Origin: Candidatus Omnitrophota bacterium
GTDB taxonomy: Bacteria > Omnitrophota > Omnitrophia > Omnitrophales > Aquincolibacteriaceae
Assembly: GCA_035352955.1 (NCBI GenBank)
Contig: DAOPYQ010000001.1
Coordinates: 37,536-101,535 of the forward strand
Direction: 5' to 3'
DNA: 64,000 nt
The position numbers are program-made. Shown piece by piece: positions 6,001-18,000 of the stretch. Each line of letters begins with the position of its first letter. The stretch's first letter is position 1.

Positions 6001-9000
6001 GTTCTCCCGGGCGGAGCGAAAGGGCGAAAAAGGTGTGGCTGATCGTGGCGATTTCACTCAATGTTTTTGCCCTGTTGTTTTTTAAGTACGCCAATTTTTT
6101 TGTGGATCAGATTGAACCATTGCTTCGTTTCGCAGGCAGGGGAAGGCCTTCCTGGTATGGCGTGGCCCTTCCCCTCGGAATATCGTTCATCGCCTTTCAT
6201 AAGATCAGCTTTGTAGTGGATCTCTACAAACGGCGGATTACTCCCCCGGCCAATTTTAAAGACGCACTTCTCTACATCCTTTTTTTTCCGCAGCTGATCG
6301 CCGGTCCGATCATCCGGTATCATGAGATCGGTCCGCAGATCGAAACCCGTACGCATAGCACGGAGGATTTTTTGATCGGGTTTTTCCGGTTCTCCCGCGG
6401 TCTTGGCAAAAAAGCGCTCTTAGCGGACCCGGCGGGCGTCATTGCCAATGCGGTCTTCGGCATGGCTCCCCAGAGCCTTCCGTTTTCTTACGCCTGGATA
6501 GGAGTCATCGCTTATGCGGTTCAGATCTATTTTGATTTTTCGGGATATTCTGACATGGCCATAGGTCTCGGCCGGCTTGTGGGATTTCGTTTTCCGGAGA
6601 ATTTTAATCAACCTTATACGGCGAAAAGTATTACGGAATTCTGGAAACGGTGGCATATCACGCTTTCCAACTGGATGCGGCTTTATCTTTACATCCCGAT
6701 GGGGGGGAATCGGGTTGAACCGTGGCGGATGTACCTGAATTTATGGATCGTCTTCCTGCTCTCGGGTCTTTGGCACGGGGCGGCCTGGACCTTTGTTTTA
6801 TGGGGAGCTTACTACGGCTTTTTTCTCACGTTGGAAAAATTTTGCGAGAGGCGCGGCTGGACGTTTTCCGTTCCCGGGGTGATCAAAAATCTTTGGACAT
6901 TCCTGGTTGTTCTGAACGCCTGGGTGTTATTCCGGGCTCCCACGATCGATTATGCGCGCTTGTTCCTGGGGCGAATGTACGGGATGCTGTCGCAATCGCA
7001 GCCGACCAGCGAGCCTTTTGCCCTGATCTTTCCGCCGCATGATCTGGCCGTGACACTGATCGGCTTGCTGATCGCTATGATCCCTTTGCCGGAAGCAGTC
7101 CGGCGTTTGGGGGCGATCCGGGATTCTTCGATCCTTGACATGACCCGGTGGGGTTTTGGCGTTCTTTTGTTTTGGGTGGCCCTTTCGGACATCCTGGCTT
7201 CCGGGGTCAGCTCGTTTCTTTATTTTCGTTTTTGAGAGAATTTTTGATAAGCAATACAACCATAAACTTGGGCGCTGTATGAAAAAGATAGCGTTGCTTT
7301 TGCCGGTCATCATCGTTCTGATCCTCTGCGAGATGGGTTTTCGCGCTTCTTATATTCAGGAACAAGATCGATTGCGTTTAAAGTATGAGGGGAGATCGCT
7401 GTGCCTTGAAAGTGACGAGGCTTTGATCTATACGGCGATCCCGGGGCGTTGTGGTGCGAATTCGCAAGGTTATTTTGACGCCGAACACTCTTTTGTGAAG
7501 CCGAAGGATGTTTTCAGGATCGTTATTATCGGAGATTCCATCGCCCAGGGGCAGGGAGTGGGACGGGAGGAATCTTTTGGCCGGGTCCTGGAAAAAAAGC
7601 TGAATGCCGCGCAGAATAAAAAAAAGGTTGAAGTGATCATCTTGGCCCTGACGGGTTATTCGACGAGCCAGGAATTAATCCTGCTGCGGGAGCAGGCGTT
7701 TCGGTATGATCCGGACATGATCCTCTGGAGTTATGTCTTGAATGATCCCGCCCATCCCTTTTTTCACGATGCGAACGGCGAATTAGGCCGGTATTTTTAT
7801 AAGCCGCGAAGCTACCTGCTGCATTATGTTTCCGCCCGGTTTTTCAATGCCCGAGAACGGATGAGATGGAAGGCCCTTCATTCCGAGGGCATGGAGTTCC
7901 ATGTTTTTTTAAATACGGTTTATTGGGACGAGGTTAAGGCCGATCTCGGGGCGATAGGCAAAGTTTCAAAAAAGAAAAAAATACCCGTTCTGTTTGTGAT
8001 CCATCCCGTGTTCAAGAAAGACGGAATGTTTGACCGGTATCCGTTGACTGTAGTCCACGAAAAATTGAAAGAGTATGTTCTTCTCCAGGGGTTACGGCCG
8101 CTTGATCTGCTAGGGGCCTATCAAGGCTACCGCTCCGAACAACTGAATCAGGGCCCCGAGGATCCCTGGCATCCGAACGCGAAGGGGCATGAAGTGGCCG
8201 CAGAGGCTATTTCTGAGGCTGTCCTGAAGGGCGATTATATAAAATGATCTATCCACAATCTTTTCGAGAACGGATATGCTGTCTCTTCCTGTCTGATTGC
8301 CGCGTCGGAAGGTGAGAGGTTCGAGCAAGCATCCTCGGTCGGGGGTTGGAGAATGCAGCGCGTTTTATTGTGTGCGGCGAAACTTAGGGAGGCGACATGA
8401 AGGTAGTGATTCTTGCGGGAGGTCTTGGGACGAGACTTAGCGAAGAGATGGAGGTTTGTCCGAAACCGATGATCGAGATTGCCGGGAAGCCTATCCTTTG
8501 GCACATTATGAAGTCCTATTCTTATTATGGATATAACGACTTTGTGATCCTTCTCGGGTATAAGGGGTACGTGATCAAAGAGTACTTTTCGAATTATTTC
8601 CTTCACCAAAGCGATGTCACGATCGGCCATATCGGGACCTCGAGTTTTTATCCGCCCCATCATATCACCACAGGGGAAGGCGGGGCCGTCTATAGGATGT
8701 CAACCTGGGGCAGAGCGCGGCACTTCCTAAAAAAAGAAGCAAGGGCTTAAATGATTAAATTTCTGGATCTTGAAAAAATTAATATGCAACATGCTGTGGA
8801 GTTCAAGCGAGCGGCTGCCGAAGTTATTGACTCTGGCGGGTATGTGCGAGGTGAAAGGGGTAGGCGCTTTGAAATTAACCTCGGAAATTTTATCGGCGTA
8901 ACGCATGCCGTTGGAGTTGCGAACGGCTTGGATGCCTTGCGTTTAATCCTAAGAGCTTATATCGATATGGGGAGCATGCGGGAAGGCGATGAAGTCATTG

Positions 9001-15000: not shown

Positions 15001-18000
15001 TGGGAAGTGTAAGATTTTTATCAATCGTAGTACCCGTTTATTGCGAACAAGAAGTAATCAATGAATTCTATATCAGATTAAAGAGCGTGCTGGATCAGCT
15101 TGGGGCCAGTGTCAAATATGAAGTTATTTTTGTAAACGATTGTAGCCGTGATGATTCGATAGCGTTGTTGAAGGCGCTAAATAAAAAGGATGCTTCTGTA
15201 AAGGTCATTAGTCTCGCTAGAAATTTTGGTCACCAGATAGCGATTACCGTCGGGATAGATTATGCGAAAGGCGATGCCGTTGTTGTGATGGATGGGGACT
15301 TACAAGACCCTCCCGAGGTTATTCCTGACATGTTTAATAAATGGATAGAGGGATATAAAGTTGTTTATGGCGTTAGGAGAGAACGACGGGGAGAGGGTCT
15401 GATGAAGGTGAACGTGGCCAAGATGTTTTATAGGTTCTTAAATTTGATGAGTACGATCAAGATTCCTACGGATGTGGGCGACTTTCGTTTAATGGACAGG
15501 GTTGTCGTCAATACGCTTAAGACGATGAGAGAAGAAAACAGGTATGTGCGCGGACTCGTGGCTTGGGTTGGGTTCTCGCAGACGGGAGTCTATTTTGATC
15601 GTGACCCCAGATATGCTGGGAAGGCAAAATATACATTATCGAAATTGACAAGGTTGGCCATGAGCGGCATTACGAGTTTCTCCGAGAAGCCGCTTTATTT
15701 CTCGAGCTATTTGGGGCTGGTTGTCACCTTGCTTTCATTTGCAGGTTCGCTGTGGATCATTATCGGTAAAATGATGAATCAAGCTCTTGTTATCCAAGGC
15801 TGGACGACGATCATGTTGGCAATATTTTTCTTCGGGGGGGTACAACTATTTTCAATGGGGATTATTGGCCAATATATTGCAAAAATTTATAACGAAGTAA
15901 AGCGCCGCCCTCTTTATGTTATCCAGGAAAAAATCGGCATTGAAGAACAAAACCTTTTGCAAGATGCTGAACGCTTGAGAGAGCAGGGTGCATCCTAAGA
16001 GTTGTAAGGGCTTGAAACGGGTTCGTCCTATGTGATTGGAACTTATATCGACAATTCTCAGATAATTATCTATGAAAGTACAAAATTAATTCAAGTCATT
16101 CATGTTATCCTGCAAGTTCCTGTATGATGTTCCTAATTATCCAGACATCAGCATTGCCTACATTGCCGGCTATCTAGTCCGCCTGGGCCTGGTCCCTTCG
16201 GAAAGGCGGCAGACCGCCTCTCTCCCGCGCTCGAAATTTTGCCTCAAGAGTGTGCCATAATACGGCCTGTTTTATGGGGTCCGATGTAAAAGAGGGGCAT
16301 ATCCTGAGAGCAGAGGAGGTCCCAGGGGCGCCGGGCAAGCAGTGTATTTTAAAAAACGAATAGGGATGGCATGCGGAGCATTATGAAAAAAAGACTGCTG
16401 CTTTTGTCGATCGTTATCGTTCTGATCCTGTGCGAAATGTGGTTTCGCGTTTCCTATATTCAAGAACAAGATCGATTGCGTTTAAAGTATGAGGGGAGAT
16501 CGCTGTGCCTTGAAAGTGACGAGGCTTTGATCTATACGGCGATCCCGGGGCGTTGTGGTGCGAATTCGCAAGGTTATTTTGACGCCGAACACTCTTTTGT
16601 GAAGCCGAAGGATGTTTTCAGGATCGTTATTATCGGAGATTCCATCGCCCAGGGGCAGGGAGTGGGACGGGAGGAATCTTTTGGCCGGGTCCTGGAAAAA
16701 AAGCTGAATGCCGTGCAGAATAAAAAAAAGGTCGAAGTGATCATCCTGGCCCTGACGGGTTATTCGACGAGCCAGGAACTGATCGTGCTGCGGGAGCAGG
16801 CGTTCCGGTATGATCCGGACATGATCCTCTGGAGTTATGTCTTGAATGATCCGGCCCATCCCTTTTTTCACGATGCGAATGGCGAATTAGGCCGGTATTT
16901 TTATAAGCCGCGAAGCTACCTGCTGCATTATATTTTTGCCCGGTTTTTCAATGCCCGAGAACGGATGAGAGGGAGATCCCTTCCTCCGGAGGCGAGGGAG
17001 TTCCATGTTTTTTTAAATACGGTTTATTGGGACGAGGTTAAGGCGAATCTCGGGACGATAGGTAAAGTTTCAAAAAAGAAAAAAATACCCGTTCTGTTTG
17101 TCATCCATCCCGTGTTCAAGAAAGACGGAATGTTCGATCGGTATCCGTTGACTGCAGTCCACGAAAAATTGAAAGAGTATGTTCTTCTCCAGGGGTTGCG
17201 GCCGCTTGATCTGCTAGAGACCTATCAAGGCTACCGCTCCGAACAACTCAATCTGAGTTCCGAGGATCCCTGGCATCCAAACGCGAAGGGGCACGAAGTG
17301 GCCGCGGAGGCTATTTCTGAGGCTGTCCTGAAGGGCGATTATATAAAATGATCTATCGGCGATCGTAAGAGCCCGGGCCCCTTCCGGAGCGGAAAAGTCC
17401 TAACATTTTATTTCTGCGAAAGGCGGGCGCCGCCCTTTTCCCCGTCGCCGGGAAAATTCACGCGAAAAACCTGAACGTAATTTGCGTCATTCAGGCTTCC
17501 CTCCGAGATGAAGGGTCTGATGCTCCGGTAGTTTTTTCCGTTGAAATAATAAAGCTGGAACAAGACGGAATCGAGCAGCTCTCGGGGGACCAGCATGGCT
17601 TTTCTGCTGCCTTCCGGATTGTTCATGTCAAACGAGGTTGCCCAGACGGCCGACGGGGAATCGGAAACCGGTTTTCGGACCCATGTTCCGTCCTGGGGAT
17701 AGATCAGAGAGATCGGTTGAAGATCCAGGCCGGTCTTTTCCCGTTCGATCATAAAAGCATTTTTTTGAGTCCGGTCGATGATCAGGTCCTGGTAGACGAG
17801 ATAATCCATGACACTGTAAAGAAAAGGTCGCGGTTTTTGATAGGGGAGAGTTCCCCCGGTAATGGCGTTAACTTGTTTGAAGTAATTGAGATTCTGATCC
17901 TCCCCGAAATTTCTCAAAAGGATCTCTGCCATCGGCCGGTCGAAAGCTTTTTTCGCTTTTTTGAAATTCCAGCGGCTTGCCTGCTGAACGATTGCGTTAT

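Follow-up and report, generated by a model that had tools for sequence, protein, structure and literature searches.

Introduction

Proteins of the SGNH superfamily, which includes E. coli TesA/TAP and the carbohydrate acetyl-esterases, are recognised by four conserved sequence blocks. In several glycan systems they are paired with an O-acyltransferase of the MBOAT family, as in PatA/PatB for peptidoglycan and in AlgI with AlgJ/AlgX for alginate. Bacterial genes maintained as paralogs, such as tufA/tufB or the rRNA operons, can undergo concerted evolution, which leaves perfect tracts in diverged direct repeats and mosaics of paralog alleles. The collapse of paralogs by short-read de Bruijn assemblers is in turn recognised by anomalies that lie only inside the repeats and vary from assembly to assembly, and by contig breaks in or near the copies. 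Here we analyse two direct copies, A and B, of an SGNH/GDSL hydrolase gene in a surface-glycan locus of a Candidatus Omnitrophota bacterium. The window is the whole stretch of 64,000 nucleotides (nt) that was analysed, taken from a metagenome-assembled genome (MAG; GCA_035352955.1, contig DAOPYQ010000001.1, positions 37,536 to 101,535 of the forward strand; NCBI proteins HNX67881.1 and HNX67890.1 belong to this MAG).

The locus resembles each of these systems in part. Both copies carry the four SGNH blocks, score above the Pfam threshold and have a predicted flavodoxin-like fold matching TesA, acetylxylan esterases and GDSL esterases (Foldseek probability 1.0); they differ in their low identity to solved structures (13-21%), in being anchored to the membrane by the N-terminus and in carrying a helical insert that forms a lid (residues 167-233). 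Like the MBOAT-SGNH pairs, copy A lies in a glycan locus, 43 nt 3′ of an AlgI-like MBOAT gene that follows an AlgX-like gene. However, 76%-identical relatives of this MBOAT (e.g. in Methylobacter) keep the AlgX-like and MBOAT genes without an SGNH gene after them, and copy B has no MBOAT neighbour. The window shows the perfect tract expected of concerted evolution, and another contig a mosaic of paralog alleles; the tract, however, does not recur from one assembly to the next, the reproducible pair has diverged uniformly, and the case is known here from assembled contigs. The distribution of the anomalies is that of paralog collapse, although one clean two-breakpoint mosaic is not its most typical pattern. 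We give a probability of roughly 0.6 to an older duplication, of genuine paralogs or of xenologs very close to each other, in which purifying selection acts on both copies, the perfect tract being probably not the product of ongoing conversion.

Results

Two intact copies with homology confined to the coding sequence

The window contains a direct repeat at 7271-7570 and 16375-16674, with a start-to-start spacing of 9104 nt. Alignment of the two regions (7100-8330 against 16200-17440) showed that the genes are offset by exactly this distance, with zero indels over 969 nt (Table 1). The two direct copies reported in the initial annotation are therefore real; the start listed there for copy B, 16371, is an in-frame ATG upstream of the homologous one, giving 326 amino acids, and both starts are used by gene callers. 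In the window the copies differ at 57 of 969 nt (94.1% identity, or 95.3% beyond nt 90), which is below the ~97% that had been claimed, and the proteins differ at 26 of 322 residues. The differences are unevenly distributed: nt 1-81 hold 16 of them (80% identity) and nt 332-969 the other 41 (93.6%), so that nt 82-331 are free of differences. An identical run of 250 nt is highly non-random (permutation P<1e-5). The 5′ end, described as clearly diverged, is indeed more diverged, with near-identity from about nt 82, but it is still recognisably homologous.

Homology begins at the ATG and ends 6 nt beyond the shared stop codon. The flanks of the two copies showed no homology, their local alignment scores being equal to those of shuffled controls. 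Thus the homology consists of the open reading frame (ORF) plus 6 nt and does not reach the flanking DNA, contrary to the proposed segmental duplication. The shared 3′ tail mentioned with that proposal exists as these 6 nt, while most of the sequence quoted for it belongs to the last codons of the ORF.

The perfect tract in independent assemblies

Six other contigs of the same Candidatus Omnitrophota MAG population were retrieved by exact-protein look-up: L001 (NCBI GCA_035403665.1), L002, L005 and L090 (three JGI metagenomes; JGI 3300009692, 3300025858 and 3300025867), and L003 and L004 (two ENA k141 assemblies; ENA ERZ27257423 and ERZ27257449). Both complete copies, 9104 nt apart, were found in L002, L004 and L090, and L003 has both with copy A truncated. 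The unique flanks of the copies are identical across these four JGI/ENA assemblies. All differences between these assemblies and the window over about 9-18 kb fall inside the two copies, and no ordinary single-nucleotide polymorphism (SNP) was seen. A comparison with related strains had been suggested beforehand; the one made here, with other assemblies of the same population, recovered the two-copy arrangement but not the identical tract.

In the three JGI contigs, copy A differs from the window at nt 147, 177, 255, 262, 264, 267 and 273. All seven changes lie within the perfect tract of the window, and the change at nt 262 results in I88V. Copy B has the window sequence in L002 and L090; L005 does not cover it. 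L004, a 304-kb contig, carries the same seven changes in copy A and a single copy-A allele in copy B, at nt 471. The other contigs depart in different ways. In L001, nt 147 and 177 are changed to the copy-A alleles in both copies, and the sequence stops within copy B, at nt 606. L003, a 9.5-kb contig, starts inside copy A at nt 769 and is otherwise 100% identical to the window in this copy; its copy B is a mosaic of B (1-364), A (397-720) and B (753-969) without private changes, all 24 of the 24 changed sites having the copy A allele. We call canonical the version of copy A reproduced in L002, L004, L005 and L090. The canonical state is agreed by 3/3 JGI assemblies, whereas 4/4 non-JGI assemblies (window included) each carry a different paralog-swap anomaly (0/3 versus 4/4, Fisher P ~0.03). 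A match to the tract was also sought in a metagenome contig collection, by exact-pattern scans with N at the variable sites and with a 52-mer; none was found, the collection evidently being without these samples.

Divergence and selection in the canonical pair

When canonical copy A was paired with copy B, 64 of 969 sites differed (93.4% identity). The synonymous divergence (dS) is 0.18 and the nonsynonymous divergence (dN) 0.039, hence a dN/dS of 0.21. Across nt 82-331 dS is 0.11, against 0.17 elsewhere, and third-position differences are similarly frequent in the tract (6/83) and elsewhere (20/212; P=0.65). No run of identity is longer than 77 nt, a length that is not exceptional (permutation P=0.25). 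The conversion signal therefore vanishes, synonymous changes of the canonical pair being spread evenly over the catalytic part. Recent or ongoing conversion of the catalytic portion finds no support here in the form initially proposed: the perfect tract is absent from the three JGI assemblies and from the 304-kb ENA contig, where seven A/B differences stand in its place. The duplication itself, reproduced in independent JGI and ENA assemblies, holds, but a dS of ~0.18 does not make it recent.

The first 27 codons behave differently, with third-position differences in 7 of 27 codons versus 26 of 295 elsewhere (Fisher P=0.012), which points to an older or separately derived segment. Amino-acid differences between A and B sit at surface positions, in columns that are variable in the family (entropy 2.39 versus 1.53 bits), and the derived changes are divided evenly between the copies (13 versus 9). 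Neofunctionalisation of one copy was rejected on the grounds of this even split and of the variable-column positions, and neither copy shows signs of decay. With a dN/dS of ~0.2 and intact catalytic residues, both copies look functional and are maintained under purifying selection. The densest cluster of differences (codons 197-205) also lies in variable columns of the family alignment; a compensated frameshift was considered for this cluster and, judged by eye, was unconvincing.

Table 1. Positions in the window of the two SGNH/GDSL genes, of segments within them (nt and codons counted from the ATG) and of neighbouring features
Feature	Position	Strand	Description
AlgX-like protein	3662-5809	+	715 amino acids; PF16822 match
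MBOAT O-acyltransferase	~5799-7235	+	AlgI-like; with the AlgX-like gene, a two-gene O-acetylation module just 5′ of copy A
SGNH/GDSL hydrolase gene, copy A	7279-8247	+	969 nt, 322 amino acids, intact ORF; alignment and Pfam PF13472
5′ 27 codons (membrane anchor) of copy A	7279-7359	+	16/81 nt differ from B; dS ~0.58
Copy A perfect tract, nt 82-331	7360-7609	+	250 nt; no difference from copy B within the window
Codons 197-205, densest A/B difference cluster	A 7867-7893; B 16971-16997	+	WKALHSEGM (A), GRSLPPEAR (B)
Block between the copies	8248-16382	+	8135 nt; Pfam and NCBIfam
Chimeric ORF	8397-8750	+	117 amino acids; joins RfbF residues 1-77 to an internal piece of RfbH (profile positions 206-236)
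SGNH/GDSL hydrolase gene, copy B	16383-17351	+	969 nt, 322 amino acids from the homologous ATG, intact ORF
Copy B partner tract, nt 82-331	16464-16713	+	Same sequence in the window, L002, L003, L004 and L090
STT3/PglB-like oligosaccharyltransferase	17408-19927	-	PF02516, PF21436; convergent with copy B

A membrane-anchored SGNH subfamily

Both proteins match Pfam PF13472 (Lipase_GDSL_2), with 41.0 bits for A and 42.5 bits for B against a cut-off of 32.9. The catalytic set comprises S87 (in G85-D86-S87), G126, N155, D295 and H298, corresponding to blocks I, II, III and V. An alignment of the copies with 30 homologs shows no variation among 33 family members at G85-D86-S87, G126, N155 and H298, and D295 is kept in at least 90%; A and B both have the complete set. 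The AlphaFold2 model (predicted local distance difference test, pLDDT, 92; predicted template modelling score, pTM, 0.89) consists of an N-terminal helix (residues 2-36) with a hydrophobic anchor, the SGNH core and the lid insert of ~65 residues. Codons 197-205 form a loop in this insert, where the block 201-210 has the lowest model confidence (pLDDT 71). Foldseek against the PDB gave 92 matches at E<=1e-3, and nearly all of the top 50 listed were SGNH/GDSL-type esterases or lipases. A sequence search of solved structures gave only weak GDSL matches and nothing specific, and the score against NCBIfam NF047474 (LA_2486 family SGNH esterase), 32.7 bits for a cut-off of 300, places the copies outside that family.

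Subfamily members are scattered over many phyla, among them Nitrospirota, Latescibacterota, Planctomycetota, Gammaproteobacteria, Omnitrophota and Nanoarchaeota. The next-closest homolog among 5.8 billion proteins is 53% identical, and no homolog between 53% and 92% identity was present in the databases searched. Scanning genome contigs with the family alignment gave 77 loci, all at most 51% identical, with no sister species to polarise the duplication. Neither tblastn of all locus proteins nor neighbour-ORF clustering revealed a conserved neighbourhood across these 77 loci; a carbamoyltransferase-like protein is encoded near six of them and ABC-transporter-like ORFs near three (annotated by eye from sequence). 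Two cysteines ('..NC..' and 'LHC', near copy A residues ~200 and ~213) are conserved in most subfamily members and jointly absent from A and B, which have A/S-L-H/P and 'LNT' at these places. This suggests that a disulfide may have been lost in this lineage. We infer that both copies encode an enzyme that removes or transfers acyl groups (an acyl-esterase or acyl-transferase), with a glycan or a lipid-linked sugar as substrate, on the outer side of the cytoplasmic membrane.

A surface-glycan locus

The gene order was read from the window and from an upstream extension provided by L001. It starts with Wzm, Wzt (with Wzt_C), a methyltransferase and a two-domain GT4 glycosyltransferase, followed by the AlgX-like and MBOAT genes and copy A. 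The block between the copies then contains the chimeric ORF (an rfbF'/rfbH' remnant), a DegT aminotransferase, a hexapeptide acetyltransferase, two FdtA genes, a GT2 glycosyltransferase, a DUF7024 membrane protein and a polyprenyl-phosphate glycosyltransferase (GtrB/PgfS/ArnC-like); copy B and the convergent STT3/PglB-like gene end the series. The GC content of the block is ~46%, against 55-60% in the downstream genome. An AT-rich stretch at 15999-16370 had been read as consistent with a recombination junction or insertion. Its first ~150 nt do have only 31-33% GC, but the whole spacer, at 47.3%, is hardly different from the 46.1% of positions 7500-17500. The 384-nt spacer before copy B holds short ORFs only, and the one annotated by a gene caller is without a Pfam match. 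A promoter/terminator scan performed no better than on shuffled sequences, and Rfam gave no match across 7000-17600.

The chimeric ORF adjoins the 3′ side of copy A, directly 5′ of the intact DegT gene, and is kept in all examined assemblies that cover it. It is identified by TIGR02623 (E=2e-39), NF011936 (E=8e-11) and the Pfam NTP_transferase and DegT-fragment matches. It is a deletion scar of a CDP-3,6-dideoxyhexose operon, RfbF being the glucose-1-phosphate cytidylyltransferase. The two FdtA (WxcM-like) genes (10705-11145 and 11135-11545) are in tandem, overlap and are 43% identical; they represent an older tandem duplication within the block.

The assignment of the SGNH genes to a PatB/AlgJ-type partner role is unsupported, since the pairing exists only at copy A and neither protein matches PF16822 (AlgX/AlgJ). 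No MBOAT gene was found within 10 kb of any of the 77 SGNH-family loci from other species (tblastn, E<=1e-8), and the adjacency of copy A and MBOAT looks lineage-specific. One SGNH homolog (P0004) follows a GT2-GtrA fusion, a position resembling that of copy B.

Further features of the window were noted. The STT3/PglB-like gene sits near the GtrB/PgfS-like transferase and the DUF7024 membrane protein, and the locus may glycosylate proteins besides building a polysaccharide. In the 3′ end of this STT3-like gene, the independent contigs L002, L090 and L003 end within 41 nt of each other (17518-17559), ~170-210 nt 3′ of copy B; no repeat in the window explains the break, which may mark a junction at which the glycan locus varies between strains. 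At 465-716 (in ORF 28-1101), tandem 63-nt (21-residue) repeats, 71-75% identical and rich in A/E/K/Q, occupy the C-terminal part of the methyltransferase that in L001 follows Wzm and Wzt. Judged by domain content, the protein may be a WbdD-like terminator; the repeats are reminiscent of a WbdD-like coiled-coil chain-length ruler, and their number could vary. Inverted repeats of 86 nt (32267-32352 and 32853-32938, 90% complementary) precisely flank a gene for a repeat-rich protein of 163 residues (32361-32852; TPR-like by eye); the unit may be a mini-element that inverts or moves, or may form a long stem. Finally, a 36-nt direct repeat (26521-26556 and 26673-26708; 97% identical, 152 nt apart) at an ABC-transporter gene junction includes an ATG and looks like a duplicated start region.

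Discussion

How assembly could produce the perfect tract

We consider it probable that the perfect tract and the mosaics come from paralog collapse and chimerism during assembly. The duplication is not a mis-join, because both copies are found at the same spacing in other assemblies. Assembly collapse or mis-join had been named in advance as the outcome that would undo the initial proposal; it probably accounts for the extreme identity, but for the duplication itself neither applies. Within nt 82-331 the canonical copies match exactly over stretches of 65, 77 and 58 nt, so that they become connected in every de Bruijn graph built with a k of 77 or less. A short-read metagenome assembler would then merge A and B across the shared k-mers, and the merged graph would retain two small bubbles, one at nt 147/177 and the other at nt 255-273. 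Bubble popping followed by repeat threading would give both copies one sequence of either allele set. L001 fits this scheme exactly, with copy-A alleles in the first bubble and copy-B alleles in the second, and the window has copy-B alleles in both. The mosaics of the other non-JGI assemblies would have the same origin.

Several points weigh against this explanation. If the final k exceeded 77 with good coverage, simple collapse would be harder to invoke. In L003 the mosaic switches between the paralogs just twice across 57 informative sites, a pattern nearer to a clean conversion tract (324-388 nt) than to random bubble choices. The single swap at nt 471 in the k141 contig L004 needs support from reads or from lower-k contigs. 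The contrast between JGI and non-JGI assemblies could reflect the samples and not the software. Furthermore, the more diverged 5′ 81 nt are compatible with an old conversion or recombination boundary. A literature search for the JGI samples gave no match. One paper on anaerobic-digester MAGs describes metaSPAdes co-assemblies (PMC7382037); it could not be connected with the present records and was not used as evidence.

Possible interlocus gene conversion

The principal alternative is that the exchanges are real: recent, recurrent, RecA-mediated and non-reciprocal transfer between the copies in a near-clonal population. The events would be B into A for the tract of the window, A into B over the lid loop in L003, the nt-471 swap in L004 and a shared haplotype in L001. 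We regard this as somewhat unlikely. The non-random 250-nt run of the window speaks for it, as do the two switch points of L003 and the concentration of all population variation in the repeats. Every variant allele in L003 and L004 is that of the paralog and none is private, which an assembly chimera predicts equally. However, none of the JGI assemblies contains the identical tract or the mosaics, and L002, L004, L005 and L090 agree on the seven tract differences. L001 requires two events of opposite direction, whereas collapse explains it in one step. Altogether at least four independent conversions are needed, yet no ordinary SNP separates the assemblies over about 9-18 kb. Measured rates of interlocus conversion in bacteria, even between ~99% identical genes such as tufA/tufB, fall far short of the rate at which SNPs arise over 18 kb. 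One would therefore not expect several real conversions in the absence of any ordinary SNP, and conversion between 1-kb repeats that are ~93% identical is expected to be much rarer than point mutation. Frequent conversion should also have homogenised the copies, yet dS is 0.18 and uniform. Finally, two of the contigs with anomalies are interrupted within the repeats or next to them.

A further consequence is a functional one, which we think rather unlikely: the swaps, including that of the lid loop (codons 197-205), would be real, the repeats might also excise or amplify the 8.1-kb Fdt/GT/GtrB block, and the decoration of the surface glycan would vary as a result. Of the two rearrangements initially envisaged between the copies, deletion is possible and inversion is not, the repeats being direct; amplification is possible as well. 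A deletion hybrid, in which the 5′ end of A is joined to the 3′ end of B, was found in none of the six members of the 90% protein cluster.

Origin of the pair

Several observations show that the glycan locus has been rebuilt by recombination: the homology is confined to the ORF, the flanks are unrelated, the block has a lower GC content and an rfbF'/rfbH' scar is present. The same features would suit separate acquisition of the two copies as xenologs, without duplication in this genome, a quite improbable origin in our view and one compatible with either explanation of the tract. A DNA circle carrying the Fdt/GT/GtrB block and a related SGNH gene would have entered by a single crossover in the resident SGNH gene, thereby creating direct repeats. 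Homology that ends at the ORF plus 6 nt between unrelated flanks, the lower GC of the block and the scar adjoining copy A are in line with this route. So are the closest MBOAT modules, which have no following SGNH gene, the homolog that follows a GtrB-type GT2 as copy B does, and the different divergence level of the 5′ 81 nt. On the other hand, the databases searched hold no donor lineage with an SGNH gene at 53-92% identity, and the borders show no integrase, insertion sequence, att-like feature or other repeat. Moreover, a single crossover predicts one clean divergence breakpoint and not a uniform dS. That the entire duplication is an assembly artefact, by mis-join or a duplicated contig end, is effectively refuted: metagenome assemblies do make such errors and one NCBI MAG contig ends inside copy B, but the arrangement recurs with the same unique flanks and 9104-nt spacing in four other JGI/ENA assemblies, and A and B are separated by 57-64 nucleotide differences and 26-27 amino-acid differences.

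Implications

An older duplication with a tract that was probably made by the assembly leaves a pair of paralogs, real though ordinary, from an uncharacterised SGNH subfamily. Its main value is cautionary: a tract of perfect identity in diverged paralogs of a MAG can mimic concerted evolution and yet depend on the assembler, and it was the comparison of independent assemblies of the same population that exposed this dependence. For the family, the pair represents a lineage-specific doubling of a widely scattered, membrane-anchored group within a glycan locus of an uncultured phylum. If the swaps were true, they would amount to repeat-driven variation of surface glycans, and the organism would possess a built-in means of varying their decoration, for example under phage or host pressure.

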